NCBI GenBank assembly: GCA_030693425.1
Contig: JAUYAM010000005.1
Span: 12,950 to 76,949 of the forward strand
Length of the DNA stretch: 64,000 nucleotides
Reading direction: 5' to 3'
Origin: a bacterium
GTDB taxonomy: Bacteria; Patescibacteriota; Minisyncoccia; Minisyncoccales; GWA2-46-15
The translations under genes and the position numbers were made by a program. This document shows positions 6,801-53,096 of the stretch, in pieces (within the stretch, counting starts at the first letter, position 1; each line of letters starts with the position of its first letter). The notes beneath the pieces were generated by a model that did not search any database, was not told the origin of the DNA, and saw nothing but the letters and a program-made list of their open reading frames with translations.

Positions 6801-6878
6801 AAAATTAAAGTGGGGTGATTTCTTATTTAATATGGCTGTTTTAATTATAGCAGAAAACGGGCAAGGATAAAAGCTATT

Positions 6879-9315: not shown

Positions 9316-10305
9316 TTAAGCTTTGTCTTGAGAATTATTGTCCCGGCTAGCCTCGAACGGCTGGCCAAGTTCCTCTTCTAATTTCTTAATTTCTTTTTTT
9401 AAATCGACCATTTTCAGCTCGCGGTCGACTGCCAAACGGTTAAATCTTTCGAGTTCTTTCATCTTTCCCTGAAGATCTTCTGTCCTGGCTTTTACCTGTT
9501 CTTCAAGGCTATTGGCCAAATCCTGAAGCTCCCTGGTCCTAGCCGCTACCCTGACTTCTAAAACCTCTTTCGCCTCTTCCAATTTTTGGCGAGAATCCTT
9601 GAGGTCTCCAAGCATTTCGTTAAAAGTTTCCGCCAAATCCCCAATCTCGGTTCTCGGGCTGGTTTTGATCCTGACGTCGAGATTTCCCCGCCTGACGTCC
9701 TCGCAACTGGCGGTAATCTCTCTGATCGGATCGACGACGCTTCTCAAAATGACGACCATCGCTCCCGTTCCCAAAAATAAAGCCAGCAGGACCACTAAAA
9801 GATACCGCCATAAAAGCCTGCTCATTAAAATCTGAGTCTCTCTGAAAGAAAAGCCGATCCAGATCGCCTGGTTTTCGTAGCTCGGATAGATAAGCGCCTT
9901 GATGTCTTCTCCGCGAAGAGTTTCGTCCCTAATCAGACTTTTTTCCGACTTGATGACGTTGGCAATATCTATGTCTTTAAGCTTTTTGCCGATTTCGCCT
10001 TCAAGAGTGCTCTGGTGGATTTCTCCTGTGGATTTTACGATTCTGATGAAACGAACGTCTTTGAATTTGGCCAGACCGGCGATCAGTCCTTTTTCCGAAT
10101 CTTTCAAGAGGGACATGCGGTAAAACCAGGAAGGAGAGCCGACCGTTTCCTTGATCGCCTCGGCCAGCTTTATCTTTTCCTCAATGCCTGCCTTGAAGAG
10201 ATCTTGCTGATGGCTGGTGATTGAAAAGTAAATCAAAACGCTGGCCACCAGAAAAGAGGTTGCAAAAATGCCGAAGATAATGCTGTACAGAGAGTACTTT
10301 CTCAT
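9316..10305 (-). CDS. membrane protein with extracytoplasmic domain, HAMP domain and coiled-coil tail
   Basis: 329 aa. N-terminal TM, ~130-aa loop, second TM, HAMP (PIREITASCEDVRRGNLDVRI...EIGDLAETFNEMLGDL). A heptad-rich tail follows and no output domain is visible. Confidence 0.75.
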   Translation of the reverse strand: MRKYSLYSIIFGIFATSFLVASVLIYFSITSHQQDLFKAGIEEKIKLAEAIKETVGSPSWFYRMSLLKDSEKGLIAGLAKFKDVRFIRIVKSTGEIHQSTLEGEIGKKLKDIDIANVIKSEKSLIRDETLRGEDIKALIYPSYENQAIWIGFSFRETQILMSRLLWRYLLVVLLALFLGTGAMVVILRSVVDPIREITASCEDVRRGNLDVRIKTSPRTEIGDLAETFNEMLGDLKDSRQKLEEAKEVLEVRVAARTRELQDLANSLEEQVKARTEDLQGKMKELERFNRLAVDRELKMVDLKKEIKKLEEELGQPFEASRDNNSQDKA

Positions 10306-15758: not shown

Positions 15759-17699
15759 ATGGCTGAGAGAAAATTCTACCGCAAAGTCTACGGGAAAACC
15801 AGAAAAAGGAAGTGGTTTTTTTCGTTGCTAAAGTTTTTCGCATTGTCTGTGCTGGTTCTTTTTGCCATCGGCCTGATATTTGTCATCAACTATGCCAAGG
15901 ACCTGCCCCGCCCGGAAAAATTCACCGAAAAAGAAACTTACCAATCGACCAAAATCTATGACAGAAAAGGAGAAATCGTTCTTTACGAAATTTACGGCGA
16001 GGAAAAAAGGACAATCGTTCCTTTGGGGCAGATCTCCAGCTATCTTAAAGAGGCAGTCCTGGCTGCCGAAGATGCTGATTTCTACCGTCACCGCGGCATA
16101 AGTCCAAAAGGAGTCGCTAGGGCCATCCTGGCCGATTTGAGAATCTTCCAGCCGGTTCAGGGAGCCTCGACCATCTCCCAGCAGCTGATCAGGTCCTCGT
16201 ATCTTGGATTGGAAAAAACCGGAGCCAGAAAAACCAGAGAGGTAATCCTCACCCTCGAACTCGAAAGACGCTACTCCAAAGACCAGATTCTGGAATTCTA
16301 TTTGAACCAGATTCCCTTCGGGCAGAACGCTTATGGCGCCCAGGCCGCCGCTCAATCTTATTTTCAGAAAAACGCCAAGGACCTTTCTCTGGCAGAAGCC
16401 GCTCTCCTGGCCTCCCTGATCAAAGCTCCCAGCTATCTTTCTCCCTACGGCCCCAATCAAGAAAAGCTTTTCATTAGAAGAGACTATGTCTTACAGCGAA
16501 TGGCTGATTTGTATTTTATTACTCCCGAGGCGAAAGAGGCCGCTGAAAGCGAGGTTCTAAAATTCGCCAAAATCAGCCAAGCGATCAAAGCTCCCCATTT
16601 TGTCATCTGGATCAAAGGCCTTTTGGAAGAAAAGTACGGCGAAAACTTCCTAAAAGAGAAAGGGTTGAAAGTCTATACGACTTTAGACTGGGATCTTCAG
16701 GAAGCGGCCGAAAAAATCGTCGAGGAAAGAGTTAAGATAAATCAGGGCAACCGTTCTTTTAACGCCGCTGCCGTTGTCATCGACCCGAGAACCGGACAGA
16801 TATTGGCCATGGTTGGCTCCAAAGACTTTTTTGCCGATCCTTACCCGGCAGACTGCCTGTCCGGGAAAAACTGCCTTTTTGAACCTCAATTCAACGTTGC
16901 TCTGGCCAGCCGTCAGCCGGGCTCATCGTTTAAGCCCTTCGTTTATGCAACTGCTTTTAAAAAGGGCTTTGACGACAAGACCGTCGTCATCGATGAGCAG
17001 ACTAATTTCGGCAATTGGGGAGGAGAGGATTACATCCCTCGGAATTACGACGGCACTTTTAGAGGCGCGGTCACTCTTAGGCAGGCGCTGGCCCAGTCAT
17101 TGAATATCCCCTCAATCAAGGTTCTCATGAAAATGGGGGGCTTAGAAGATAGCGTCCAAACTGCCAGAGATCTGGGAATTACCACTCTAAAATCCCCTTT
17201 TGGGCCCGCGATAGTTCTCGGCGGCCATGAGGTTAAACTTCTAGAAATAACATCTGCTTACGGCGCCTTTGCCAACAACGGCCTCTGGGCAAAACCGACC
17301 CCCATCTTAAGAATCGAGGACACTGATGGGCAAATTGTCGAGGAAAGCAAAACTTCTCCCAGACGGGTTCTTGAGACAAAAGTGACCGCCCTGATTAATG
17401 ACATCTTGTCGGACAACGCTGCCAGGACCCCGATTTTCGGGCCAAGATCGACTCTGTTTTTTGAGAACTATCAGGTGGCAGTCAAAACCGGCACCACTCA
17501 GGATTACCGCGACGGCTGGACGATCGGCTACACCCCGTCGATTTCTATTGGGGTCTGGACCGGAAATAACGATAACTCGCCGATGCAAAAAGAGCCGGGG
17601 ATAGTTTTCGCCGGCCCAATCTTTCATCAGATAATGGAAAAAGCTTTTTCCCGAGAACTGCCAGAGCCTTTCCCGAAAACAGACAATCTAAACCCTTAA
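15759..17699 (+). CDS. bifunctional class A penicillin-binding protein (glycosyltransferase/transpeptidase)
   Basis: 646 aa. N-terminal TM; GT51 motifs EDADFYRHRG and GASTISQQL; transpeptidase motifs SSFKP, KTGTT. Confidence 0.9.
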   Translation: MAERKFYRKVYGKTRKRKWFFSLLKFFALSVLVLFAIGLIFVINYAKDLPRPEKFTEKETYQSTKIYDRKGEIVLYEIYGEEKRTIVPLGQISSYLKEAVLAAEDADFYRHRGISPKGVARAILADLRIFQPVQGASTISQQLIRSSYLGLEKTGARKTREVILTLELERRYSKDQILEFYLNQIPFGQNAYGAQAAAQSYFQKNAKDLSLAEAALLASLIKAPSYLSPYGPNQEKLFIRRDYVLQRMADLYFITPEAKEAAESEVLKFAKISQAIKAPHFVIWIKGLLEEKYGENFLKEKGLKVYTTLDWDLQEAAEKIVEERVKINQGNRSFNAAAVVIDPRTGQILAMVGSKDFFADPYPADCLSGKNCLFEPQFNVALASRQPGSSFKPFVYATAFKKGFDDKTVVIDEQTNFGNWGGEDYIPRNYDGTFRGAVTLRQALAQSLNIPSIKVLMKMGGLEDSVQTARDLGITTLKSPFGPAIVLGGHEVKLLEITSAYGAFANNGLWAKPTPILRIEDTDGQIVEESKTSPRRVLETKVTALINDILSDNAARTPIFGPRSTLFFENYQVAVKTGTTQDYRDGWTIGYTPSISIGVWTGNNDNSPMQKEPGIVFAGPIFHQIMEKAFSRELPEPFPKTDNLNP

Positions 17700-18812
17700 A
17701 GGCATTAGCAGATACAGGTAGCTGGAATCTTGCTCCGGCCTTAAAACCGCCGGGTCTTCGTCTTTGCTCAAAGCAAAAATGAAATCTTTTTCTCTGATCT
17801 GATTCAGACCGTCGACTAAGAATCTCCAATTGAAAGAAACTTCCATTTCCTCTCCCTTTTCGATTTTGACTGCCAGAGCGCTAGTTGACTGGCCGACTTC
17901 CGGATTCTGTCCCTCGATCTCAATTTCCTGCTTTTCCGGTTTAACCCTGATTTTTATCTCGTTGATTTTATTGCTGAAAAGGCTGACTGCCTTGAGGCGC
18001 TGAAGGAAAACGTCTTTCTTGACCAAGGCCCTGAAACGGAACTCCGTCGGGATAATCTCTCGATAATCAGGGTACCCTCCTTCGATTAATCTAGAGAAAA
18101 ACTGGATTTTGGGATGGGAGGTTTCCTCCATCAGCATTTCCAGAAGAATCTGATTCGAAGAAAGGTAGAATTTCAAATCGCCGCCTCTGTCTTCAAAAAT
18201 ATTGATTATCTCCCGACAGGCTTTCTGGGGCAGGATGAAAGAGATTTCCTTGCTCATTTTTTCGCCCAGAGAAAGGGTTTTTTCGGCTAAACGGAAACTG
18301 TCGGTTGCCACCATTTTTAGGTTGCTGTCAAGAAACTGGAAATAGACTCCGGATATTTCCGGCTTGATGAGGGAAACTGCTGCCATTTCTACTACCCGAG
18401 ACAGCCCCTCGACAAACTCCGGAGCTTTTAAGGAAAACGTCTCTTTCGAATCCGGCTCGGGAATAATGGGAAACTCTTCCGCGTCCAGTCCGTTGATCTG
18501 GGCTTGGAATTCTTCCGCTTCCAGCAATATTCTTTTCTCCTCTGCTTTTAAGACTATTTTTTCCGCCGAAAGGTTATCGACCAGTCCTTGAAGAATCCTT
18601 AAAGGGCAGGCGATTTTCCCTTCTTTCTCAACTTTGGAAAGAATCCACCATTTTATCCCCATTTCCAGGTCCGTGGCTTTTAAGCAGGTAAAGCTTTTTT
18701 CGCAGGATATTAAAACCGAGTTTAGAATCGGCAGGGAAAGATTTTTTTGAGCGATTCTGCCGACGGCATTGAGGCCTTCTCTTAAATTTTCTCTGAGGAT
18801 GGTCGTCTTCAT
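17688..18812 (-). CDS. dnaN: DNA polymerase III beta sliding clamp
   Basis: 374 aa. Three-domain clamp pattern (MKTTILRENL...LPILNSVLI...ATDLE), located directly downstream of dnaA. Confidence 0.9.
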   Translation of the reverse strand: MKTTILRENLREGLNAVGRIAQKNLSLPILNSVLISCEKSFTCLKATDLEMGIKWWILSKVEKEGKIACPLRILQGLVDNLSAEKIVLKAEEKRILLEAEEFQAQINGLDAEEFPIIPEPDSKETFSLKAPEFVEGLSRVVEMAAVSLIKPEISGVYFQFLDSNLKMVATDSFRLAEKTLSLGEKMSKEISFILPQKACREIINIFEDRGGDLKFYLSSNQILLEMLMEETSHPKIQFFSRLIEGGYPDYREIIPTEFRFRALVKKDVFLQRLKAVSLFSNKINEIKIRVKPEKQEIEIEGQNPEVGQSTSALAVKIEKGEEMEVSFNWRFLVDGLNQIREKDFIFALSKDEDPAVLRPEQDSSYLYLLMPLRV

Positions 18813-19017
18813 AGTATTTAGTAAATTACTTAATATATACTTGTTGTTGTTGTTGGCAGTCTTTGATCCGTCGGATTTTCCTGTAAAACAGCTTTTAATA
18901 AAATGTTATTTCTTTTGGCAAAAAGGCGGGCAAAACTGTGAAAAAGGTGTTCTTTAAAATTTGTTCAGTTTCCAAAGCCTTTTATTTGGGTCTAGATTTC
19001 ATCAGGTTTCCCCGCCC

Positions 19018-19026
19018 TTTTCCACA
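19018..19026 (+). promoter_or_regulatory. DnaA-box-like site TTTTCCACA
   Basis: One mismatch to TTATCCACA. Lies in the dnaN-dnaA intergenic region. Confidence 0.4.
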
Positions 19027-19053
19027 GGATTTTGACAGTTTTTGCCAAGGGGA

Positions 19054-20406
19054 TCACAAGCCGTAGAGTTTTTTTCTAATCAGGCTGATTTCTTCCAAAA
19101 AATCCTCATCCCTTTCGATTTCTCCCTTGATTTTCTTAAAAGCGTGGATAGCGGTGGTGTGGTCTTTGCCCTTGAACATTCTGCCGATGGCCGGAAAAGA
19201 ATATTTCAACTCCTCCCTCAAGAAGAACATTATTATCTGCCGCGGTTTCACTATCTCCTTTTTTCTAGTGACGTCGAAAACTTCCTTTTCTCTCAGATCG
19301 TAAAAATCGCTGACCGTTTGGACGATTTTTTTCGGAGAAGAGATTCTCGGAAGGTTGACCGTAAAACTCCCGAGCACCTCTTTTGCCACCTCGATAGTCA
19401 GAGGTTTTCCGTAAATCTTTTGATGGGTTGCCAAGCGGTTCAAAGCTCCTTCCAGCTCGCGGATGTTTTTCTGGATATTGCTGGCGATATAATTTAAAAT
19501 GTCTTCGTTAAACTCGATTTTCTTTTCCGAGGCCTTGGTTTTCAAAATGGCGATTCTCGTTTCCAGGTCCGGCAGGCTAATGTCGGCGATCATTCCCCCT
19601 TCGAAACGGGACCTCAGTCTTTCGGCGAGGGAAGAAATGGCTTTTGGCGGGCGGTCGGAGGAAAGAACGATTTGCTTGTCTTTTTCGTAGAGAGCGTTGA
19701 AGAGATGGAAAAACTCTTCTTGGGTTTTTTCTTTCCCAGCCAGAAACTGGACGTCGTCGACAATCAACAAATCGATCCTCTGGAATTTTTGCTTTAATGA
19801 TTCGATCTGGTGGTTTCTGATAGCCCCGACGATTTCCGAGGTGAATCTTTCTGCGGGCAGATATTTGATGTTTTTCTTGCCATGAGTTTTATTGACTTCG
19901 TTGCCGATTGCCTGCAAAAGATGAGTTTTGCCCAAACCCACTCCGCCGTAGACGAACAAAGGATTGTAGGCGCGCCCGGGGTCTTTGACGATCGCCGTTG
20001 CCGCGGCGTGAGCCAGCTCGTTAAAAGAGCCGACGATAAAGTTTTCAAAAAGATAACGGGGATTGAGATTGGTTTCCCTGTCTACTTTCAACTCCTGAAA
20101 ATCGAGTTGTTCTGCGGCGACGGCTTGATTGGTTTTCTTTTCCAGAGGCGTCGGCGGCGAGGAATAGCCGACGATGTATTTTATTTCCCTCAAACCGTTG
20201 TCCTGATCGTTGATGATTTTGGCAATCAGTTTGTGGTATTTGTTTTTCAGCCATTCCCTAGAGAAAGAGTTGGGAACGGAAATAGTCACCTCTCCGTTTC
20301 CGTGGGAAATAATTGAGGTTTGCCTGAACCAGGTGGCGAAATTCGCCGGGGAGATGACTAGTTGAATTTGGGCAAGGACAGTTTGCCAGAGTTCTTCGTT
20401 CGTCAT
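19054..20406 (-). CDS. dnaA: chromosomal replication initiator DnaA
   Basis: 450 aa. AAA+ Walker A GGVGLGKTHL, Walker B LLIVDDVQF, C-terminal DNA-binding motif (HTTAIHA). Confidence 0.97.
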   Translation of the reverse strand: MTNEELWQTVLAQIQLVISPANFATWFRQTSIISHGNGEVTISVPNSFSREWLKNKYHKLIAKIINDQDNGLREIKYIVGYSSPPTPLEKKTNQAVAAEQLDFQELKVDRETNLNPRYLFENFIVGSFNELAHAAATAIVKDPGRAYNPLFVYGGVGLGKTHLLQAIGNEVNKTHGKKNIKYLPAERFTSEIVGAIRNHQIESLKQKFQRIDLLIVDDVQFLAGKEKTQEEFFHLFNALYEKDKQIVLSSDRPPKAISSLAERLRSRFEGGMIADISLPDLETRIAILKTKASEKKIEFNEDILNYIASNIQKNIRELEGALNRLATHQKIYGKPLTIEVAKEVLGSFTVNLPRISSPKKIVQTVSDFYDLREKEVFDVTRKKEIVKPRQIIMFFLREELKYSFPAIGRMFKGKDHTTAIHAFKKIKGEIERDEDFLEEISLIRKKLYGL

Positions 20407-20456
20407 ACGAATTCTACGAATTACGAATTTATACGAATATACCTTTTCGTAAATTA
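20405..20456. repeat. TTCGTA/ACGAAT word array abutting the dnaA start codon
   Basis: Sequence atacgaattctacgaattacgaatttatacgaatat...ttcgtaaatt. A related array lies at 30091-30120 in front of the virB4-like gene. Confidence 0.85.
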
Positions 20457-20521
20457 TAGAGATATGTTTTGAGATGATCTATTATATCTTTTGGCAAGCA
20501 AAAACGCAAAAAGAGATTAAG

Positions 20522-20552
20522 TTTTCCACATCCATTGATAAACTGTGGATAA
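20522..20552. promoter_or_regulatory. convergent pair of DnaA boxes
   Basis: TTTTCCACA (20522-20530) and TGTGGATAA (20544-20552). The second is the perfect reverse complement of TTATCCACA. Confidence 0.65.
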
Positions 20553-20626
20553 AGGGTGGAACAACAGAGAACAAACTTAGTCATATATTATCGCAATCTG
20601 CGCGTCTCGTTGGTATTTTACCAAAT

Positions 20627-20646
20627 TTACACGATCGTGGATTTTT
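20627..20646. repeat. CACGATCGTGG palindrome family, copy P1
   Basis: ttaCACGATCGTGGattttt with a central CGATCG. Related copies at 20697, 43292 and 43917. Confidence 0.8.
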
Positions 20647-20696
20647 CGTAAGCTTTTGTTCAGGAAATATCGTTTTCAAATGAGACTTTACGAATT

Positions 20697-20716
20697 TTAC
20701 ACGATCGTAGATTTTT
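20697..20716. repeat. CACGATCGTGG palindrome family, copy P2 (1 mismatch)
   Basis: ttaCACGATCGTAGattttt, 70 bp after P1 with the same flanks. Confidence 0.75.
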
Positions 20717-20921
20717 GGCAATCTTCCTGATCCTAAATTTTCTATGTCACAGGCACATTAGTTTTACTACAATTTCCCGTCTCGCAAGTCGTGCACGTCT
20801 TTTTTTAAACGATTTAACCACCTCTTCTGTGATCAGATTTTAGATGATTTAATACGGAGAGTTGTTTTGCGGAGTAAAACCTGCTAGACTGATTGATGAA
20901 ACTTTGTTATTAATTTTCGCC

Positions 20922-21056
20922 ATGTCCATTACCTACAAGCCAAAGAGAAAAAAGAGAAAAAGAACCCACGGTTTTTTGATAAGAAGCAGAACCGTCGGCG
21001 GGAGAAGAATTCTTGCCCGCCGGCGCCGGAAGAAAAGAACTAAACTCACCGTCTAA
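20922..21056 (+). CDS. rpmH: 50S ribosomal protein L34
   Basis: 44 aa: [44 protein letters not shown]. Start taken at the internal ATG of ORF 20862..21056. Confidence 0.9.
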
Positions 21057-21058
21057 AA

Positions 21059-21421
21059 ATGCTTCCTAGACTCTACCGCCTTAAAAAAGAAAGCGATTTC
21101 GATCGCCTCTTTAAAAAAGGGATGGTTAAAAGCGGCGAGTTTTTGACCATCAGGTTTATTGACAACGGCCGGGGAACCAGCCGTTTCGGATTCGTAGTCG
21201 GTAGTAAAAGTTTCAAAAAAGCCAGCTTGAGAAACAAGCTCAAGAGAAAGCTGAGAGAGGCGGTCAAGGGAAATCTAGCCCTTATTGAACCCGGAAAAGA
21301 CGTGGCTTTTGCCGCAAAAACCGGCGCAATCGACAAAAGCGTCAAAGAGACAGGAGAACATATCTTTTCTCTTTTAAATCAGGCAGGTCTCATTAAAAAA
21401 CAACAGACCCCGCAGCAATGA
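21059..21421 (+). CDS. rnpA: ribonuclease P protein component
   Basis: 120-aa basic protein directly after rpmH. Contains the RNR-like motif (SLRNKLKRKLRE). Confidence 0.85.
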   Translation: MLPRLYRLKKESDFDRLFKKGMVKSGEFLTIRFIDNGRGTSRFGFVVGSKSFKKASLRNKLKRKLREAVKGNLALIEPGKDVAFAAKTGAIDKSVKETGEHIFSLLNQAGLIKKQQTPQQ

Positions 21422-22161
21422 GTTCTAATATTCTTGGCCAGTTTTTCCAAGTTTTTTTATACCAGCCGCTTTTCAACGCCCTGATCCTTATCTACAACCT
21501 GCTGCCCGGGCACGATTTGGGCGTGGCTGTAATTATCCTCACCGCGGTCATCAAGGGCCTGACCTGGCCCTTGAACACCAAGGCATTCAGGGCCCAGCAG
21601 GCGATGGCCAAAGTCCAGCCCCGGATCAAAGAAGCCCAGCAAAAATACAAAAACAATCCCGGAGAGCAGGCAAAAGTGGTTTCAGAAATATTCAAAAAGG
21701 AAAAAGTCAGCCCTTTCAGCTCGCTGGTTCCGATTCTGATTCAACTGCCGGTTTTGATCGCCTTGTACCAGCTTTTCTTAAAAGGCCTTTGGGCGGAAAA
21801 CAACTATCTTTACAGTTTTGTCTCTAGGCCCGGGGCTTTGAGCCCGACGTTTTTAGGAATTATCAATCTTTCTCAACCGAGTTTTTTATTGGCCGTCTTG
21901 GCGGGTTTGGCCCAATTAGTTCAATCCTTAATGATGCCGAACCCAGCCGGCCAAGCCGGCAATTCCGATCCCGGGCAGAAAATGGCGCAAATGATGCAAA
22001 AACAAATGACGTTTTTATTTCCGATACTGACGGTTTTCATCTTGGCCAAGCTGCCGTCGGTCCTCGGGCTTTACTGGCTGGCAACATCAGTTTTCACGAT
22101 TTTGCAGCAATATATTTTAAACAAAAAACATGATTTCAAGGGAACAACGGGAAACAATTAA
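21418..22161 (+). CDS. yidC: membrane protein insertase YidC (short form)
   Basis: 247 aa, polytopic. Motifs PLFNAL..., QPRIKEAQQKYKNNP, LYWLATSVFTILQQ. ATGA overlap with rnpA. Confidence 0.9.
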   Translation: MSSNILGQFFQVFLYQPLFNALILIYNLLPGHDLGVAVIILTAVIKGLTWPLNTKAFRAQQAMAKVQPRIKEAQQKYKNNPGEQAKVVSEIFKKEKVSPFSSLVPILIQLPVLIALYQLFLKGLWAENNYLYSFVSRPGALSPTFLGIINLSQPSFLLAVLAGLAQLVQSLMMPNPAGQAGNSDPGQKMAQMMQKQMTFLFPILTVFILAKLPSVLGLYWLATSVFTILQQYILNKKHDFKGTTGNN

Positions 22162-22588
22162 AGAGATTATCAGGAATTTCTTTGATAAGGCGACAATCGA
22201 GGTTGAAATCAAAGAGGAAACGGTCGATGAAGACACTTTTAGGATCAATCTGGAGACTGAGTCTCCCCAGCTGCTGATCGGAGAAGGCGGGCAGACTTTG
22301 AGCGAAATCCAGCATCTCTTAAGGCTGATTTGTCGAAAAAAGATCGGCCCCGGTTTTTACTTGGACATCGATGTCAGTAATTACAAGAAGAAAAAAGCGG
22401 TCTATTTGGAGGAATTAGCCAAGACCGCTGCCGACGAAGTCGCTTTGACCAAAAAAGATAGAGAACTTTTGCCGATGTCTTCGCAAGACAGAAGAATCAT
22501 TCATCTAGTTCTCAGTCAGAGGGCAGATGTTATTGCCGAAAGCAAGGGCGAGGATCCGGACAGAAGAGTGATTATCAGGCCGGCCTAG
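22130..22588 (+). CDS. jag: Jag/KhpB-like KH + R3H RNA-binding protein
   Basis: 152 aa. KH-like LLIGEGGQTLSEIQHL and R3H-like MSSQDRRIIHLVL, in the canonical position after yidC. Confidence 0.8.
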   Translation: MISREQRETIKEIIRNFFDKATIEVEIKEETVDEDTFRINLETESPQLLIGEGGQTLSEIQHLLRLICRKKIGPGFYLDIDVSNYKKKKAVYLEELAKTAADEVALTKKDRELLPMSSQDRRIIHLVLSQRADVIAESKGEDPDRRVIIRPA

Positions 22589-28297: not shown

Positions 28298-30085
28298 TTA
28301 CTCTTCTGATTCTTGTTTAGCTCTTCTAATTTTCAAAACTTCTTCTGGAGAAGTGGTAATAATTTGGTCTTCGGCGTAAGAAGCGACAATGCGGATGGCA
28401 ACGTGTTTTTGGCCGGCGATGAACACTCCCTCGCCGATGCCAGATTGCAAAAGGAGCATTTTTTCCTCCTCGGTCAGGTTGAAAGTTTTTTGGACTTGGT
28501 TGACTATGGCCGGGCTTTGCTTCAAGAGAAGCTGGAGCGAGGAGTTGGCGACAATGGCCAAACCGTAGCTTGATCCCAGGAAGTCGCCGACGTCCTGAGT
28601 GATAGTTGTTAATCCCAGCCAGTATTTTCTCGCTCTTTTGGCCACGCCAAAAAGAAAAGAGGCGCCATCGTTAGACTGCATCAGCCACCAGGCCTCATCG
28701 ATCAAGAGCATCCTTTTTTTGAGCTGGGAGCGGATCTTGTTCCAGATATACCTCATAACTACGAACATCGCCATTGGCCGAAGTTCATCCTCCATATCTC
28801 TGATGCCGAAAACGACCATGTTTTTGTCCAGAGAAAGATTGCTCGGCTGGTTGAAAAAGTTGGCAAAAGTCCCCTGGGTGAACTTTCTCAATCTTCTTAC
28901 CAAAGAATCCCCTCCCTCCATGGTTTCGAGAACCGATTCCAAATCGGACATAAGGGGGATGTTTTCCTGCCACTTTAAGGGATCGGATTCCGGGGTAATG
29001 TCTTTGGCGGCATAGGTTTCGGCTATGGCCCGGTCGATAATGGCGTCTTCTTCTGCGGTTAAACCGCCGAGCATAAGTCGCAAGAGCCCCACGAGGTTAA
29101 TGACGTTAGATCTAAGAACGTCTTCGGGATCTTCATCTTCCCGGGGCAGAGGCAGGTCAAAAGGGTTTATATGGTTTTCCGAGCTCAGGGAAATGTTGAA
29201 GAACGATCCACCGACGGCATCAACCAGGAACTTATATTCGTTCTCCGGGTCGATGACAATCGTGTCGACCCCGGTCATCAGAGACCTTAGGATTTCAACT
29301 TTCGCGAAGTAGCTTTTACCCCCACCCGATTTACTGAAAATTAAGAGGTTCGCATTCTCTAAACTAAAGCGGTCAAAAAGAATCAGGGAATTATTGTGCC
29401 GGTTGATGCCGTAAAGAGTCCCTTCGTTTGAACTTAAGTCAAAAGAAATGAAGGGAAAAGTTGAAGAAAGCGGGCTGGTGTTCATCGGCGTGTGGATGTC
29501 TAACAAATCCAGACCGTAAGGAGAAGTAGAAATGAATCCTTGTTTTTGTTGGAAAAGGGCGGGCTTGATGAAAATCAGTTTTCCCTCGAGGATTGATCTC
29601 AAGGTCAGCTCGACGTCGCGGAGTTGTTTTTCCGTGTCAGCGTAAATAGTAATATAGAGGCCGAACCTGAACATTTTTTCCTGGGCGGTTTGCAATCCGT
29701 CCCTCAAAGCTTCCATGTCTTGGAAAGCGGTTTCCAGGACAGGATCTCGGATGAGTCCTTTTTCCTGCCGGTCAATCAGCTCCGCTTGGACCTCGGTCAC
29801 TTTTTTTCTCAATAATTTCAAGATCAAGCCGGTATCAATCGGGTGGATGAAAAAACTAATGTCCATCGGCGTTTCGAGGTTGATGATGGGCGAAAACCAG
29901 CCGGTGGAAAGGTACCGGGGATAAGAAAAGGCGAAAAAGGATTTGGCGAGTTTTTCCCCGATCTTCAAAAAGCTCTGCTGGATTTCAATCGAAGACGGGG
30001 CGATAAAATCCCTGACGTTGAGAATCTCGGCTTCGAAGATTTTTTCCGGCAAACCCCGGTTTTTTTTAAAAAAGGGAATGTTCAT
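28298..30085 (-). CDS. VirB4/TraC/TrsE-like type IV secretion ATPase
   Basis: 595 aa. P-loop FSKSGGGKSYFAK, VIDPENEYKFL, INPFDL, Walker B MLLIDEAWWLM, and an N-terminal YPRYLSTGW-type VirB4 domain. Confidence 0.8.
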   Translation of the reverse strand: MNIPFFKKNRGLPEKIFEAEILNVRDFIAPSSIEIQQSFLKIGEKLAKSFFAFSYPRYLSTGWFSPIINLETPMDISFFIHPIDTGLILKLLRKKVTEVQAELIDRQEKGLIRDPVLETAFQDMEALRDGLQTAQEKMFRFGLYITIYADTEKQLRDVELTLRSILEGKLIFIKPALFQQKQGFISTSPYGLDLLDIHTPMNTSPLSSTFPFISFDLSSNEGTLYGINRHNNSLILFDRFSLENANLLIFSKSGGGKSYFAKVEILRSLMTGVDTIVIDPENEYKFLVDAVGGSFFNISLSSENHINPFDLPLPREDEDPEDVLRSNVINLVGLLRLMLGGLTAEEDAIIDRAIAETYAAKDITPESDPLKWQENIPLMSDLESVLETMEGGDSLVRRLRKFTQGTFANFFNQPSNLSLDKNMVVFGIRDMEDELRPMAMFVVMRYIWNKIRSQLKKRMLLIDEAWWLMQSNDGASFLFGVAKRARKYWLGLTTITQDVGDFLGSSYGLAIVANSSLQLLLKQSPAIVNQVQKTFNLTEEEKMLLLQSGIGEGVFIAGQKHVAIRIVASYAEDQIITTSPEEVLKIRRAKQESEE

Positions 30086-30090
30086 TGTTC

Positions 30091-30120
30091 TACGAATATA
30101 CGAATACGCTAATATGCTAA
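30091..30120. repeat. TTCGTA/ACGAAT word array abutting the virB4-like start codon
   Basis: tacgaatatacgaatacgctaatatgctaa. On the sense (minus) strand it reads TATTCGTATATTCGTAGAACA-ATG. Compare TATTCGTATAAATTCGTAATTCGTAGAATTCGT-ATG in front of dnaA. Confidence 0.8.
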
Positions 30121-30131
30121 CAGCTAAAATA

Positions 30132-30791
30132 CTAAAAGCTCGTTGGTTTTTCTTGGGTGAGTTCAGGAGGAATTTCGGGGTAATAGCCGACTTCGGCTTC
30201 GCTTGGATGGTGGATGGCCCAGAAAAACTCGATCAATTCCGGAGTCGCCAGAGGAACGACCTGCAGCTCCATTCTTTTTAATCCCAAAGCCAAAAATTCC
30301 ATTCTTTGCCAGAGCTGGGACTTGCATCTCTGGAACTGGTCTTCGGTCAAAGTCGGGAATTTAGGCATTTTAAAAAGGCTGCCTGAAGCGGACACTCCCT
30401 GGGCTTCCAAGATAGTGTAGGGGATGACCATAAAAAAAGTTTTGCTCATAATCGTTCCTCCCTCGACCAATCCCTTGATGAAATCATAGTAGCTGGCGGT
30501 TTGGGTTTTCATCAGCTCGCCGAGCTGAAGGTCCTCCAAACGTTTTATCTGGTCCAGATAGCCGGTAATGTTCAGTTTTCTCGATTGGACAATGATCTGG
30601 ACGGAAAAATCCAGGGAGTTTATAAAGCTCTGGAATTGGTAGATGATCGCCTGCTGCTCTTCGTCCGACTTCAAAGCAAAGTTCAGGGAGGAGATCATCA
30701 TTACTCCCCGGAGGCCCTTATTCTTTAGAATAATCATCCCCTCCCTAATCTGATCAATCTCTAAAAAGTCTTGAGTTGAAGATTTGGCCAT
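30132..30791 (-). CDS. stand-alone VirB4 N-terminal-domain-like protein
   Basis: 219 aa. SSLNFALKSDEEQQAIIYQFQSFINSLDFSVQIIVQS resembles, from memory, the first ~200 aa of Gram-positive conjugative VirB4 homologues. It has no P-loop. Confidence 0.45.
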   Translation of the reverse strand: MAKSSTQDFLEIDQIREGMIILKNKGLRGVMMISSLNFALKSDEEQQAIIYQFQSFINSLDFSVQIIVQSRKLNITGYLDQIKRLEDLQLGELMKTQTASYYDFIKGLVEGGTIMSKTFFMVIPYTILEAQGVSASGSLFKMPKFPTLTEDQFQRCKSQLWQRMEFLALGLKRMELQVVPLATPELIEFFWAIHHPSEAEVGYYPEIPPELTQEKPTSF

Positions 30792-30794
30792 AAT

Positions 30795-31220
30795 TTATCT
30801 TTGGGTGTCGACTCGGTTCGACATTTCTTTTAAGCGGCTTCTGCCGATCACTTTCAGTTCGGGCGAAATTATCTTCGGTTTGACTACCCTGCTTAAATCT
30901 TCCGTTTTTTTCCAGACAATTCTCGGCGGCAGCTCTTTTTTCTTCCAGAGATAGATTCTTGAGGAAACAAAAAAACCGAAGAAATTTCCGAGGATGACAG
31001 GAAACGACCTTCCCTCGACTCTTAAAAAGGCCAGGGCGGCGGTGACGAGGGCGATGACGCCGCTGGCCAGGAGAAAGAGAAAGAAATTGGTTTTTGCTAC
31101 GGAAAGATAGACAAAACCGATAAAAGCCCCTCCGATCGCCAGCAAGATAAACTGCTTGAAAGTGAAGGGACCGGCAATCTTTGTCTCTTGGTCAATGAAT
31201 TGAGGAACTTGAAACCGCAT
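30795..31220 (-). CDS. PrgI/VirB3-like small membrane protein
   Basis: 141 aa. MRFQVPQFIDQETKIAGPFTFKQFILL start plus two TM helices, located just upstream of virB4-like genes. Confidence 0.6.
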   Translation of the reverse strand: MRFQVPQFIDQETKIAGPFTFKQFILLAIGGAFIGFVYLSVAKTNFFLFLLASGVIALVTAALAFLRVEGRSFPVILGNFFGFFVSSRIYLWKKKELPPRIVWKKTEDLSRVVKPKIISPELKVIGRSRLKEMSNRVDTQR

Positions 31221-31230
31221 TTCTTAGTTG

Positions 31231-31255
31231 GCTAGCGGCTAGCGTCTAGCGGCTA
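31231..31255. repeat. heptamer array (GCTAGCG x3.5) flanking the four-helix-bundle gene
   Basis: gctagcg gctagcg tctagcg gctag. It contains CTAGCGTCTAG, whose reverse complement recurs at 31638-31648. Confidence 0.85.
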
Positions 31256-31617
31256 GTTTTTAATTCCAATTTTTTAATAAGAGTATTTAACATTTTTTGG
31301 ACTTCTTCGAGAAGATTTTCTGCTCTTGCGTAATTATTCTCGCGATATAAGTCTCCGGCGATTATAAGCTGGGTTTCTAATTCGGCCGAAGAGCCATAAG
31401 CAATATGCAAGAATTGTAAAAACTCTTTTAAGGTTCTTCTCAAATGTCCCTCGGCGATATTAGAAGGAATCGAAACGGCTGCTCTCCTCATTTGAATAGA
31501 CAACCCATAAACCTCAGCATTCGGGAACTTGCCGGTAAGAATATAAATTTCTTTTACCAGCTCGATCGCCCTGTTCCATACCGTCAGTTCTTTATAAGAC
31601 TTTAAATACATACGCAA
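31246..31617 (-). CDS. four-helix-bundle protein (23S rRNA intervening-sequence protein family)
   Basis: 123 aa. YKELTVWNRAIELVKEIY...FPNAEVYGLSIQMRRAAVSIPSNIAEG...GSSAELETQL is the classic signature of this family. Confidence 0.85.
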   Translation of the reverse strand: MRMYLKSYKELTVWNRAIELVKEIYILTGKFPNAEVYGLSIQMRRAAVSIPSNIAEGHLRRTLKEFLQFLHIAYGSSAELETQLIIAGDLYRENNYARAENLLEEVQKMLNTLIKKLELKTSR

Positions 31618-43352: not shown

Positions 43353-43901
43353 ATGGTTAAACTTAATACTTTAACGAAAAAAGTTTTACTTTTATTGGCT
43401 GGCGGATTAGCGCTTGGTTGTACTTATCATCCTGGCAGACAGTGGAAAATTATAAGGTCGGTTAATCGAGAATGGAAAAAAATTAATGAAAAAGAGCTTT
43501 GGCGCGAAATAAGGAAACTTTATCGTTCTAGGCTGGTGGAGAAGAAAGAAAATCCGGATGGCAGCCTTACTTTTGTTTTAAGCACGAAGGGGAAAATTAA
43601 AACCTTGAATTTCCGGTTTGAAAAAATTTGCTTGCAAAGGGAAAACTGGGATAAAAAATGGCGCTTGGTGATTTTTGATATCCCCGAGAGATTAAGGCAG
43701 GCAAGAGATGCTTTAAGGGAAAAGTTAAAACAACTTGGTTTTTACGAGCTCCAAAAAAGCGTTTTCGTTTTTCCTTATGAATGCGAAGACGAAATTGATT
43801 TTGTGATTGAATTTTTTGAGATGCGTCAATATGTCAGAACTATTTTGGCAGAGAAAATCGATAACGAGCTTCATCTGAAAAAAATATTTGACCTGATTTA
43901 A
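43353..43901 (+). CDS. PaaX-like / Cas2-fold regulator-like protein
   Basis: 182 aa. WDKKWRLVIFDIPERLRQARDALREKLKQLGFYELQKSVFVFPY matches the PaaX middle-domain pattern (W.G.W..V.F.IPE..R..R..L...L...GF). Confidence 0.5.
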   Translation: MVKLNTLTKKVLLLLAGGLALGCTYHPGRQWKIIRSVNREWKKINEKELWREIRKLYRSRLVEKKENPDGSLTFVLSTKGKIKTLNFRFEKICLQRENWDKKWRLVIFDIPERLRQARDALREKLKQLGFYELQKSVFVFPYECEDEIDFVIEFFEMRQYVRTILAEKIDNELHLKKIFDLI

Positions 43902-48062: not shown

Positions 48063-48137
48063 TGGTGCCCCCACCAGGACTCGAACCTGGAGTCATCTTC
48101 TTAAGAGGAAGTTGCTTTACCATTAAGCTATGGGGGC
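48063..48137 (-). tRNA. tRNA-Lys (anticodon CUU), CCA encoded
   Basis: Hand-folded cloverleaf: GCCCCCA/TGGGGGC acceptor, anticodon loop CTCTTAA, T-arm CCAGG-TTCGAGT-CCTGG, then ACCA. Confidence 0.9.
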
Positions 48138-48210
48138 TCTATACAAAGATTCTTCTAAGAATCTTTGTCGAGCCCGACAGAAACTTTCTAAAAAGTTTCT
48201 GTATAGGGCC
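48135..48210. ncRNA. tRNA-abutting nested-hairpin element, copy A
   Basis: GGCTCTAT-[ACAAAGATTC ttctaa GAATCTTTGT]-CGAGCCCG-[ACAGAAACTT tctaaa AAGTTTCTGT]-ATAGGGCC. The outer 8-bp stem overlaps the tRNA-Lys 5' end by 3 nt. Confidence 0.6.
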
Positions 48211-48720
48211 CTATAATCTTTCCACCAATTTTAATTCCAATTTATCGGTTTCAGTATCATAAACTGCAAAAGTGGCTTTGCTGAACATTCCAGATAAAGT
48301 TCCCGGATTGACTAGGCGGCACTCTCCCATCCTTTTCTCCCAGGGTTGGTGAGTGTGGCCAAAGAAAACTAAATCATATTTCTTGCCTCGGGTCAATTTT
48401 TCCGCGACTGCCGGCTCATGAACGAAAGCCAATCTTTTGCCGTCGATTTTCAGCTCGCCGGTCTTGCCGTAGAACTTCACGTTTTTTATGCCGAGCTCTT
48501 TTATTCTGAAAGGGTCTTTTGCGATTCCCACCGGGCCGATATTGCCCAAAATTAGATGAATCGCGCCCTTAAACGATTTGCTTATTTCTTTGAGCGTTCC
48601 GGGAGCGCAAACATCGCCGCAGTGAATCAGCGTTGTGATTTTGTTGCGGTTTATCCAAGCAAGAGCTTTTTTAATAGTCGCTAAGTTGTCGTGGCTGTCA
48701 GAAACAATGGCAATTTTCAT
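48211..48720 (-). CDS. YfcE/MJ0936-family metallophosphoesterase
   Basis: 169 aa. MKIAIVSDSHDN, IHCGDV, GNIG, FGHTHQP. Confidence 0.85.
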   Translation of the reverse strand: MKIAIVSDSHDNLATIKKALAWINRNKITTLIHCGDVCAPGTLKEISKSFKGAIHLILGNIGPVGIAKDPFRIKELGIKNVKFYGKTGELKIDGKRLAFVHEPAVAEKLTRGKKYDLVFFGHTHQPWEKRMGECRLVNPGTLSGMFSKATFAVYDTETDKLELKLVERL

Positions 48721-49287: not shown

Positions 49288-49288
49288 G

Positions 49289-49360
49289 TGCCCCCGGGAA
49301 GACTCGAACTTCCATTACTGGTTCCGAAGACCAGGACTTTGTCCATTAAGCTACGGGGGC
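49289..49360 (-). tRNA. tRNA-Arg (anticodon UCG)
   Basis: Hand-folded cloverleaf: GCCCCCG/CGGGGGC acceptor, anticodon arm CTGGT-CTTCGGA-ACCAG, T-arm GGAAG-TTCGAGT-CTTCC. CCA is not encoded. Confidence 0.9.
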
Positions 49361-49415
49361 TCTATGCGCCCGAAGGGCGCCGAGCCCGGTCAAAACATGG
49401 TTTTGACATAGGGCC
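49358..49415. ncRNA. tRNA-abutting nested-hairpin element, copy B
   Basis: GGCTCTAT-[GCGCCC gaa GGGCGC]-CGAGCCCG-[GTCAAAAC atg GTTTTGAC]-ATAGGGCC. It overlaps the tRNA-Arg 5' end by 3 nt. Confidence 0.6.
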
Positions 49416-51018: not shown

Positions 51019-51094
51019 CGGGGCGTGGTGTAATGGTAACATGCACCCTTCGGGAGGGTGAGATTTCTGGGTTCAAATCCCAGCGCCCCGACCA
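51019..51094 (+). tRNA. tRNA-Pro (anticodon CGG), CCA encoded
   Basis: Hand-folded cloverleaf: C1-G72 acceptor CGGGGCG/CGCCCCG, anticodon arm CACCC-TTCGGGA-GGGTG (G37), T-arm CTGGG-TTCAAAT-CCCAG, then ACCA. Confidence 0.9.
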
Positions 51095-51999
51095 ACACCA
51101 CCATTTATAAAATTTTTGAATTTCCTTTTTAGATTATCTTCTAGAAGGTTTTTAGGGTAAAGATCTCGAGGGTAGATTGCTATTAGAAAGATTTTGTTTT
51201 TCTGACAAAGTTTCCTTTTCTCCTTTATAGTTCGATCGTATCTAGGGCTATCATTCGCTAATCCAAAATACTCGACAAATACCTTTTTGTCTCCAGTTGA
51301 GATTACCCAATCTGCTTTGTGATTCGTTTCAGGGTAACAAGCATCTCTTTCGTGCAAAATATTGTTTTTATGAAACCAATTGTCAATCAAAAGTTCCGAA
51401 ATAGAATCGCATAAGTGACCATCTAAGGATTTAGCGTTAGATCGTTTATACATCCTATTATCATGAGATCTGTTTGGAATAAATCCTGCCGCAGAAACTG
51501 CTTTATTCCAAGAGCCAAAAAATCTAACACATGCTTTATCTATCCCTCCTAAAAACTCACGCTTAGTTGGCACCCTCCTCAATTTTTTAGCAGTATTTTT
51601 TATAATTTCTAAAAGTTTTTCTTTGTTGTATAATTTTGCTTTTGCGAAACAATCCATCGAGCAATATTTTTTATTGCCCACAATCCATCTTTTAAATTCT
51701 TTTCCACAATTCTTGCATTTTATCTTTTTAGCGTTTCTTTCTGGCCGTTTTTTATTATTTACTATTGCTCCGCAAGATTGTGAACAATAATTATGAGGAG
51801 AAATCGCATGAGGAGACCTCTGAAGATGCTTGCCACAATTTTCACAGGATAATAATTGCCTCCTGTTTTTATGCTGATATTCGCATTTTCGTGAACAATA
51901 AACCTTCCAGCCGAGTTTTTGGTTTTCATTCATTCGCCCGCGGCTTCGGAAAGTTGATTTGCCGCACTGGATGCAGCCGATTTTAATAAGTTTCGCCAT
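51073..51999 (-). CDS. multi-zinc-finger protein with homing-endonuclease-associated repeat and PD-(D/E)xK-like nuclease C-terminus
   Basis: 308 aa. Three CxxCGK...(Y/F)CSxxC fingers; LLEIIKNTAKKLRRVPTKREF...FGSWNKAVSAAGF; C-terminal SISELLIDNWF...ADWVI...VFVEYFGL. The 3' end overlaps tRNA-Pro by 22 nt. Confidence 0.55.
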   Translation of the reverse strand: MAKLIKIGCIQCGKSTFRSRGRMNENQKLGWKVYCSRKCEYQHKNRRQLLSCENCGKHLQRSPHAISPHNYCSQSCGAIVNNKKRPERNAKKIKCKNCGKEFKRWIVGNKKYCSMDCFAKAKLYNKEKLLEIIKNTAKKLRRVPTKREFLGGIDKACVRFFGSWNKAVSAAGFIPNRSHDNRMYKRSNAKSLDGHLCDSISELLIDNWFHKNNILHERDACYPETNHKADWVISTGDKKVFVEYFGLANDSPRYDRTIKEKRKLCQKNKIFLIAIYPRDLYPKNLLEDNLKRKFKNFINGGVGRGAGI

Positions 52000-52316: not shown

Positions 52317-52763
52317 ATGGTTGGTCAAAATAATAATTTGAGGAAGGTCGAAACCAGAATTAACCAACACCTTTTCGTCATTTGCTCGATCGTCACCCTG
52401 GCGACGATGGCTCTGATGGCGATCGATTTTTTCACCCGGGGCAGTTTTTTGCCAGCGCAGTTTAACCTTTTTTATCTGGCGGTCGTTTTGGTCTATTCTT
52501 TGCACAAAGAACTCTTGAGGTGGTTGGGCGATAAACAAGAAAAGCGCCAGGGAGAAATTTTTGTCTACGGCTGGATTTTGTTGACGACCCTGCTATATGT
52601 AGCCAATTTTTTCAGCAAGGGATATTATAGTTTTTCAAAAGAAGGGTATCCGGTCGGCACCTTGAGGGACATTTCTCTTTTGACGGTGGAAATCCTGATT
52701 GTTTTTATCCTGACGCGGTTTTTGAAACTATTGGAAGTTATTCGGCATAGAAAAAAGCCCTAA
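52317..52763 (+). CDS. hypothetical integral membrane protein
   Basis: 148 aa with ~4 hydrophobic helices. No family recognised. Confidence 0.5.
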   Translation: MVGQNNNLRKVETRINQHLFVICSIVTLATMALMAIDFFTRGSFLPAQFNLFYLAVVLVYSLHKELLRWLGDKQEKRQGEIFVYGWILLTTLLYVANFFSKGYYSFSKEGYPVGTLRDISLLTVEILIVFILTRFLKLLEVIRHRKKP

Positions 52764-52774
52764 ACGCTTACGCG

Positions 52775-52882
52775 TCGGGCTCGGCAGAAATCCGTCAAAG
52801 GATTTCTGCATAGAGGGCTCTATACGCAAACCATAGGGGTTTGCGTCGAGCCCGACAGAAATTTCATTTCTGTTTAGGGGCC
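52775..52882. ncRNA. tRNA-abutting nested-hairpin element, copy C (three-hairpin version)
   Basis: TCGGGCTCG-[GCAGAAATCC gtcaaa GGATTTCTGC]-ATAGAGGGCTCTAT-[ACGCAAACC atagg GGTTTGCGT]-CGAGCCCGA-[ACAGAAAT ttc ATTTCTGT]-TTAGGGGCC. It overlaps the tRNA-Ala 5' end. Confidence 0.6.
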
Positions 52883-52948
52883 CATGGTCCAGTGGTAAGA
52901 CGCCACATTCGCATTGTGGAAACGGCAGTTCGAGTCTGCCTGGGTCCA
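52878..52948 (+). tRNA. tRNA-Ala (anticodon CGC)
   Basis: Hand-folded cloverleaf: GGGCCCA/TGGGTCC acceptor with a G3:U70 pair, anticodon arm CCACA-TTCGCAT-TGTGG, T-arm GGCAG-TTCGAGT-CTGCC. CCA is not encoded. Confidence 0.85.
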
Positions 52949-53096
52949 CAACGAAATAAGTTTGCAAAGCAAATTTAAACGTTGTAAGAACGTAAAAATT
53001 GTCAAACAATTTCGTACGTTCCACCAAAACTATCGGGACATGGCGGGGGCAAGTTCGACCTACCCCGTAGCTCCGCCAGGGGCGGATGCTTCGGGG

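Follow-up and report, generated by a model that had tools for sequence, protein, structure and literature searches.

A palindromic intergenic element at tRNA gene starts in CPR/Parcubacteria

Element copies and their neighbours in the window

CPR bacteria are ultra-small, and their genomes are tiny and tightly packed. We analysed a window of 64,000 nucleotides (64 kb) from a CPR bacterium of the Parcubacteria type; named relatives of its CCA-adding enzyme belong to Wildermuthbacteria, Nealsonbacteria and Staskawiczbacteria. An element of 50–80 bases occurs four times in the window, as copies A, B and C and the inverted copy D, at the genes of tRNA-Lys, tRNA-Arg and tRNA-Ala (Table 1). The architecture of the element is GGCTCTAT-hairpin-CGAGCCCG-hairpin-ATAGGGCC, with the linkers termed S1, S2 and S3, or in degenerate form GGCNCTAT-hairpin-CGNGCNCG-hairpin-ATAGNGCC. 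The initial annotation had described three copies of this architecture, each overlapping its tRNA by 3–5 nt. The overlaps are indeed 3, 3 and 5 nt and copies A, B and C are real; copy D had been overlooked.

The hairpins of copy A have 11 bp each, and the stems of copy B have 6 and 8 bp. On the minus strand, the order at copy A is metallophosphoesterase ORF, element, tRNA-Lys, and the TAG stop codon of the ORF (48213-48211) directly adjoins the element. Copy D reads on the plus strand as AGCCCTAA, hairpin, CGGGCTCG, hairpin, ATAGAGGGCT; it overlaps copy C by 4 nt, so that GGCT is common to both, and the TAA stop codon of ORF 52317-52763 falls within it. The tRNA-Pro(cgg) gene of the window carries no element. 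Its 3′ end is overlapped on the opposite strand by the last ~7 codons of a gene (51073-51999, minus strand) for a 308-aa Zn-ribbon/HNH_repeat (homing-endonuclease-associated) protein, whose orthologue at two other loci (L036 and L039) stops 4–11 nt clear of the tRNA.

Table 1. Coordinates of the element copies, tRNA genes and related features of the window
Feature	Position	Strand	Remarks
rnpA (RNase P protein subunit)	21059..21421	+	PF00825, E 3.5e-20; context, outside the repeat
tRNA-Lys(ctt)	48063..48137	-	ARAGORN and Rfam; linker S1 of copy A is made complete by GCC, the first 3 nt
Copy A	48135..48210	+ (in element polarity; minus strand for the transcript in tRNA sense)	Covariance model 89.5 bits, E 1e-19
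Copy A, parts	S1 GGCTCTAT 48135-42; hairpin 48143-68; S2 CGAGCCCG 48169-76; hairpin 48177-202; S3 ATAGGGCC 48203-10		
Metallophosphoesterase ORF	48211..48720	-	Orthologues with Pfam Metallophos_2
tRNA-Arg(tcg)	49288..49360	-	ARAGORN and Rfam; first 3 nt overlap copy B
Copy B	49358..49415	+	Covariance model 53.1 bits
Copy B, parts	S1 49358-65; hairpin 49366-80; S2 49381-88; hairpin 49389-407; S3 49408-15		
tRNA-Pro(cgg)	51019-51094	+	ARAGORN and Rfam; fourth tRNA gene of the window
Copy D (inverted)	52756..52819	-	Covariance model 33.1 bits
Copy C	52816..52882	+	Covariance model 55.7 bits
Copy C, parts	S1 52816-23; hairpin 52824-46; S2 52847-54; hairpin 52855-73; S3 variant TTAGGGGCC 52874-82		
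tRNA-Ala(cgc)	52878..52949	+	ARAGORN and Rfam; first 5 nt complete S3 of copy C

A covariance model, a test of the tRNA association and an Rfam search had been named as checks in the initial annotation. The model, made from 15 relatives, found the four window copies with E-values of 1e-10 to 1e-19 and gave no match in the 64 kb beyond copies A–D. Shuffled sequences folded far worse than the window copies (z -3.7 to -7.5). From these folding scores and model matches we conclude that the element is real and beyond chance. The palindromic hexamer GRGCYC, which occurs in all three linkers, is under-represented in the window (43 sites against 72±7 expected), and 10 of the 43 sites lie inside the four elements. 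GRGCYC was considered as a restriction-type motif and set aside.

Elsewhere, the replication-origin neighbourhood (17688-22588) carries dnaN and dnaA on the minus strand, followed on the plus strand by rnpA, yidC and a KhpB/Jag-like gene; cumulative GC skew reaches its minimum at ~16-20 kb of the window. As the window has dnaA, dnaN and rnpA, RNase P in this bacterium is of the ordinary RNA-based kind. The RNase P RNA of the CPR lineage is divergent (PMC8172020). The gene at 534-2348 unusually joins a Mur-ligase (middle and C-terminal domains) to an archease domain at the C-terminus. Two further regions (28298-31617 and 43353-43901) hold a TraG/VirB4-like ATPase with a PrgI-like gene beside a 23S-rRNA-IVP family protein and, apart from these, a PaaX_M/Cas2-like protein; no CRISPR array was noticed.

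Anatomy, pairing and strand symmetry

The element consists of two imperfect palindromes, arranged head to head, with a common central 8-mer, and the whole is thus palindromic about CGAG|CCCG. In each palindrome, a 3x1 internal loop (TAT opposite C) separates the lower stem (GGCNC/GNGCC) from the upper one; the lower stem and the loop are conserved, and the upper stem varies. All copies have the flanks ATAG/CTAT and CGAG/CCCG, and the termini of the element form an 8-bp imperfect inverted repeat. Stem length ranges from 4 to 13 bp and hairpin loops have 3–6 nt; the linkers are invariant. The minimal copy (L014, 48 nt) folds as one 22-bp hairpin, evidence that the whole element is palindromic about the centre of CGAGCCCG.

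We observed strong covariation in the stems: 98.9% of cells were paired, changes occurred on both sides in 13 of 16 hairpin pairs, and none of 500 shuffles paired as well. Nearly all changes were full Watson-Crick swaps (38 double against 3 single-side). Selection had been proposed to act on structure rather than on sequence. The stems do covary, but they are not arbitrary: 65 of 67 start RC...GY and most fit the A-rich consensus RCARAAAYTT.

Linker variants bear on how the 8-mers pair. In L016b and L044, S1 changes at position 4 (U to G) together with S2 at position 3 (A to C), whereas the S3 partner remains G; in L033, S1 (CGCTC) and an enlarged S2 (GAGCG...CGCCC) have changed together. These sequences support base pairs between the central 8-mer and each of the outer ones, not one continuous outer helix. 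Such pairing would form the lower stem of each hairpin, with the conserved TAT/C internal loop. The continuous outer stem of the initial annotation is broken by the L016b and L044 variants, which keep the S1:S2 pair. The terminal outer pair covaries in L017b (A-T) and L033 (C-G) and is mismatched in L034-Arg, L041 and L043. A K-turn reading of the UAU/C loops was rejected, as the required tandem G·A positions are absent.

As tRNA-Lys and tRNA-Arg are encoded on the minus strand, their leader RNA would be the reverse complement of the sequence first annotated. In this RNA, the G-U described for the outer stem is a C·A mismatch. Likewise, the nested fold gives way for these two tRNAs to a predicted minus-strand fold with a hairpin closed by S1:S2, then the second hairpin and a free AUAGA tail. 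When whole precursors were folded, the acceptor stem was kept for tRNA-Arg and tRNA-Ala, and the tRNA-Lys 5′ strand at copy A was predicted to be captured by the central 8-mer. The suggested competition with the acceptor stem is thus predicted for copy A and not for B or C.

We looked for a transcribed-strand signature in the stems, loops and tetraloops of the collected copies and found no G·U excess and no clear bias. Among several hundred stem pairs there were ~10 transition mismatches, 4 G·U against 6 A·C on the inferred transcribed strand, a small tally that depends on the inferred direction of transcription. Loop composition was balanced (203 purines, 200 pyrimidines), and GNRA loops numbered 3 against 1 on the two strands by script, or 3 against 2 with L043 added by eye. 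Both strands score with the covariance model, and both fold as DNA equally well (z -3.5 to -8.2).

Distribution, tRNA association and turnover

A strict 24-base linker pattern occurred at four places among 185,579 species genomes, all of them CPR/Patescibacteria, and in 25 metagenome contigs, of which one (L011) lacked hairpins and was a chance match and two were duplicates. Three looser-pattern matches in viral contigs were dismissed as chance, being G+C-rich coding sequence without hairpins. In total, ~40 copies were collected. Rfam 15, searched with the window and the non-tRNA loci at the gathering score and also at E<=10, placed no family on the element; the best matches at E<=10, sroE (17.9 bits, E 1.7) and GlsR24 (E 4.6), were judged to be chance. 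Literature searched by topic and by the 8-mer strings yielded primers and unrelated work only, with no description of the element. This agrees with the claim that the motif was undescribed: the CPR/Parcubacteria element is previously uncatalogued.

Among the pattern matches in genomes and metagenomes, 21 of 29 adjoin a tRNA 5′ end with an overlap of 3–5 nt; among the ~40 collected copies, 29 adjoin the first 3–5 bases of tRNAs. The latter serve tRNA-Lys(ttt) (9 of 9), tRNA-Lys(ctt) (4 of 6), tRNA-Glu, tRNA-Arg(tcg), tRNA-Ala and tRNA-Met, and all 29 tRNAs start GCCC, GGCCC or GGGCC, with the single exception of GCCGG. None of 33 tRNAs of other identities in the element-bearing loci (Leu, Pro, Ser, Thr, Ile, Asp, Arg-gcg, Phe, Gly, Cys) carries the element. 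The first bases of the tRNA complete the terminal motif as ATAGA|GCC, ATAG|GGCC or ATA|GGGCC, and the second hairpin ends at a constant 3–5 nt before tRNA +1.

Two samples were chosen without reference to the element, eight loci with CCA-enzyme homologues and four distinct loci with a small GIY-YIG protein before tRNA-Lys(ttt). The element was present in 4/4 of the latter. Among the CCA-enzyme orthologous loci, one of eight (L034, 71% identity) has it at Lys, Arg and Ala as in the window, and the closest relative (L033, 81%) and six others (L035–L040) have none at tRNA-Lys, tRNA-Arg and tRNA-Ala. In the element-bearing loci free of selection bias (the window, L034 and L041–L045), every copy lies at a tRNA 5′ end. 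The element is thus tightly and non-randomly tied to tRNA 5′ ends, and the initial annotation was right on this association.

A UPF0213-like GIY-YIG gene (75–112 aa) lies directly before the element and tRNA-Lys(ttt) in L003, L008, L013, L017, L021 and L041–L045. It follows dnaJ where the locus reaches that far (L017, L041–L045), and its stop codon is the TAG of the element-flanking ATAG in several loci, for example L003, L013, L017 and L021. We take its presence upstream of every tRNA-Lys(ttt) copy examined as a lead and not as evidence of function. Separately, tRNA 5′-half-like fragments and long inserts directly precede called tRNAs in L009 (~6830-6938), at tRNA-Leu in L025 and L026, and at tRNA-Pro in L037 and L040. 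They are probably intron-bearing or duplicated tRNA genes, as reported for Patescibacteria (PMC13011429).

The element occurs in either orientation at the same tRNA. At tRNA-Arg, the window copy is opposite to the L034 and L024 copies, and the hairpins of the window and L034 copies are unrelated; at tRNA-Lys(ttt), the L045 and L017 copies are opposite to those of L041, L043 and L044. A replication-linked orientation was considered: copies A, B and C have the same polarity on the right replichore, but the GC skew of the other loci (6 against 9) showed no trend. Tandem arrays were found as direct repeats in L017, a 77-nt duplication in L024, a cluster with one degenerate unit in L044 and the D and C pair of the window, and array units have common junctions such as ATAGGGCTCTAT.

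Copies also occur away from tRNA starts. At seven syntenic loci the element lies at the valS 3′ end: the ValS frame runs into it (...EKWPYTKTLK*), in L022 the frame passes through the whole element, and the next gene begins 8 nt after it. We searched beside the non-tRNA copies for tmRNA, SRP RNA or another RNase P substrate and found none. In L033, a copy follows tRNA-Arg and sits in a T-loop that belongs to a duplicated tRNA 3′ half. There (9780-9934), the tRNA-Arg has an unusual T-loop (TCCGACT), 3 nt on lie a second T-arm and acceptor 3′ half, and this second T-loop (TTCG|AATC) is interrupted by the variant copy; the arrangement resembles a tRNA 3′ end that was repaired or duplicated.

At the empty sites of relatives, the upstream stop codon is just 3–6 nt from tRNA-Lys, or the upstream ORF overlaps tRNA-Ala; these tRNAs thus evidently cope without the element. 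Where orthologous copies exist, stem identity is ~90–100% (window A and window C, each against L034), compared with 71% for the neighbouring CCA-adding enzyme. This strong conservation implies purifying selection, possibly for a host function.

Interpretation and comparison with known systems

The element is real, lineage-specific and undescribed; its anatomy had been rightly drawn, and the nested-leader mechanism is only partly supported. We read it as a CPR/Parcubacteria-specific modular palindromic DNA repeat that works like REP/BIME with a preference for tRNA starts, and put the probability of this reading at about 0.45. The complementarity would be kept in the DNA and on either strand, for instance by way of hairpins in single-stranded DNA or of a cruciform, and not for one specific RNA. 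Copies reside within transcription units, by far most of them at the 5′ boundary of GCCC, GGCCC or GGGCC tRNA genes. The first bases of the tRNA complete a terminal GRGCC, which suggests that insertion or recombination there may be directed by sequence.

A promoter within the element was discarded: its TATAG(A/G) box lies too near +1, and promoter calling placed none between element and tRNA. As there is no room for a separate promoter before the downstream tRNA, transcription would have to read through the element. It would be transcribed as a pre-tRNA leader or intercistronic spacer, and both this position and the presence of rnpA in the window are consistent with a leader. RNase P would cut the element off 3–5 nt past the second hairpin; by this trimming the tRNA would be unharmed, and the upstream transcript would keep a structured, exonuclease-resistant 3′ end.

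The resemblance to REP/BIME rests on the palindromy of both strands, the occurrence in either orientation, the arrays, the patchiness, the sites at stop codons, the tolerance of the element at ORF ends and the lack of an RNA-strand signature. Several observations speak against it. Four copies with differing stems in 64 kb are unlike recently mobile repeats, the constant spacing of 3–5 nt to tRNA +1 is also expected of a role in RNA processing, the conserved orthologous copies imply purifying selection, and the tally of mismatches is small. No mobilising enzyme for the element was found among the 40 ORFs of the window, or by phmmer with Y1/RAYT queries over the collected loci, and no direct repeat that could be a target-site duplication flanks the copies examined.

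An RNA-level module is a possible alternative that we hold to be less probable. The pseudo-symmetric junction, with two variable hairpins on conserved lower stems with a UAU/C internal loop, would then be recognised in the transcript by a dimeric or structure-specific RNA-binding protein or RNase, and would control pre-tRNA 5′ maturation and/or the 3′ end and stability of the upstream RNA. Every copy seen is part of a transcription unit and has a functional RNA or cistron on each side, and promoter-like -10 boxes precede the element by 9–17 nt at tRNA-Glu loci; invariant linkers with stems of 4–13 bp are found in many RNA motifs, and S1 and S2 covary from U-A to G-C (L016b, L044) and from G-C to C-G (L033). 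The predicted capture of the tRNA 5′ strand in the copy A precursor fits as well. The initial annotation had likewise seen a tRNA-leader RNA motif, and a conserved family tied to tRNA 5′ ends does exist; its orientation, arrays, non-tRNA sites and patchiness agree less well with that view. Since both strands present the same motif, its orientation by itself is no bar to an RNA module. The transcribed strand, however, lacks a G·U excess and a loop bias, close relatives that have these tRNAs in the same gene order dispense with the element, tandem duplications and degenerate copies occur, the element is tolerated inside the valS coding end, and no ribozyme or leader family of Rfam matches even at E<=10. 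The RNA module remains the main rival because orthologous copies are highly conserved and the RNase P spacing is constant.

Movement as folded single-stranded DNA, in the manner of attC or of IS200/IS605-derived PATEs, with insertion at GRGCC-like tRNA starts possibly through the upstream GIY-YIG nuclease, appears unlikely. Conserved lower stems with unpaired bases and a variable tip resemble a folded attC, and both orientations, arrays with common junctions (ATAGGGCTCTAT) and polymorphic presence would be in line with mobility, as would the GIY-YIG gene before the element at five pattern-selected and 4/4 protein-selected distinct loci. This gene may nevertheless reflect plain synteny (dnaK-dnaJ-GIY-YIG-tRNA-Lys) within one clade, and we found no associated recombinase or transposase and no identical copies at different sites; target duplications were likewise absent, and viral contigs held no copy. 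In a wider formulation, which we advance tentatively, the element is a functional pseudo-symmetric junction at the GCCC-type tRNA 5′ boundary, either a mobile element that targets tRNA starts as folded single-stranded DNA (perhaps through GIY-YIG) or a leader RNA bound by a dedicated factor, which would gate RNase P processing of tRNA-Lys, Glu, Arg, Ala and Met in CPR bacteria. Very improbable is a degenerate tRNA-derived structure, or an ordinary pair of terminator or attenuator hairpins, placed before tRNAs by chance. S1 (GGCCCTAT or GGCTCTAT) does resemble a tRNA 5′ end, tRNA-Glu in L001 and L032 starts GGCCCTAT, CGAGCCC resembles T-loop/T-stem sequence and a stop codon often lies just before the element; but the hairpin loops have 3–6 nt, there is no cloverleaf, no tRNA or tRNA-like Rfam family matches the element, and none of the four window copies has a U-tract or a terminator call.

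If the element is a selfish palindromic repeat, RNase P trimming would offer its insertions a safe harbour; to our knowledge, no other such repeat prefers tRNA 5′ ends with nucleotide precision. Were it an RNA module, CPR would have a pre-tRNA leader signal of a new class. In either case, a conserved non-coding module of 50–80 nt at exact tRNA starts calls for explanation in genomes this compact. For annotation, the element gives stop codons and C-terminal tails to upstream genes (valS, ORF 52317-52763) and can confuse the calling of tRNA/ORF boundaries in metagenome-assembled genomes.

Among known systems, intrinsic terminators differ in that the element hairpins run into ATAGGGCC or CGAGCCCG with no U-tract. 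Structured pre-tRNA leaders and intercistronic processing hairpins of the phage T7 type, which RNase P or RNase III cleaves to leave a protective 3′ hairpin, likewise separate the 5′ end of a mature RNA from the cistron or promoter before it, and cleavage of the element at +1 would leave a hairpin with a 3–5-nt tail on the upstream RNA. Unlike these, the element has no RNA-strand signature. We considered it as an RNase III substrate and rejected this, as minimal copies (4-bp stems) stack just ~12 bp, too short for RNase III. We know of no pre-tRNA leaders that are conserved modules common to different tRNAs across genera.

TIGR arrays, found in phage and parasitic bacteria, alternate 8–12-nt repeats with non-palindromic guide spacers of 9–12 nt in 5–15 units beside a Nop-domain Tas gene (PMC12045711). 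The element similarly has two alternating short conserved linkers (8 and 12 nt) split by variable segments. These segments, in contrast, are self-complementary hairpins of 11–32 nt in only 1–3 units, and among the element neighbours there is no Nop-domain protein, nor are there UG/CCA box motifs; the palindromic segments, the unit number and the lack of a Tas gene rule out a TIGR array. Compared with MITEs, the element has the 8-bp imperfect terminal inverted repeat and lacks a target-site duplication, and it is not counted among them.

With integron attC sites and the hairpin ends of IS200/IS605, the element has in common a structure conserved over sequence and a conserved paired base with unpaired bases under a terminal stem-loop of variable length. 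It differs from attC in lacking the R''/R' cores (RYYYAAC/GTTRRRY) and gene cassettes, and from both systems in that no integrase or TnpA adjoins its copies, its two hairpins are fused via the common 8-mer and its target is a tRNA start. In L041, a phage_integrase-family gene lies 4.5 kb from the copy and has no element beside it.

The closest parallel is with the REP/BIME of Proteobacteria, including REPINs. Both are imperfect palindromes of ~25–40 nt, against ~20–40 nt in the definition of REP/BIME, with a conserved base and an adjacent tetranucleotide, arranged in inverted pairs (in the element with the common 8-mer) and in tandem clusters (L017, L024, L044 and window D and C). Both lie outside ORFs and inside transcription units, often just past stop codons, in both orientations, patchily among relatives and at similar density, ~one hairpin per 8 kb in the window. 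One end of a REP palindrome bears the tetranucleotide GTAG or CGTC as a tag (PMC3733652), whereas the element has ATAG/CTAT and neither of these tags. Linkers and stem bases are invariant and tips variable in the element, the reverse of BIMEs; its copies in one genome are not near-identical, with four in 64 kb, all at tRNAs, and are placed with nucleotide precision where a subset of tRNA genes begins. The 40 ORFs of the window and the collected loci yielded no cognate RAYT. A RAYT-like Y1 transposase gene does occur in L043 (12560-13520; 234 aa, HIH and YIHTN motifs; NCBIfam REP_Tyr_transpos 46.9 bits, below cut-off), between flanking copies of a hairpin repeat of its own, AAAACGGAGAACAGTTCTCCGTT, which is unrelated in sequence to the tRNA-start element; this suggests a REP/RAYT-like system in a CPR genome. 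Given the missing GTAG/CGTC tag, the few non-identical copies and the failure to find a cognate RAYT in these sequences, we describe the element as REP/BIME-like without counting it among REP/BIME. Most probably it is a so far undescribed variant of the palindromic intergenic repeats, set apart by its unusual specificity for tRNA starts.
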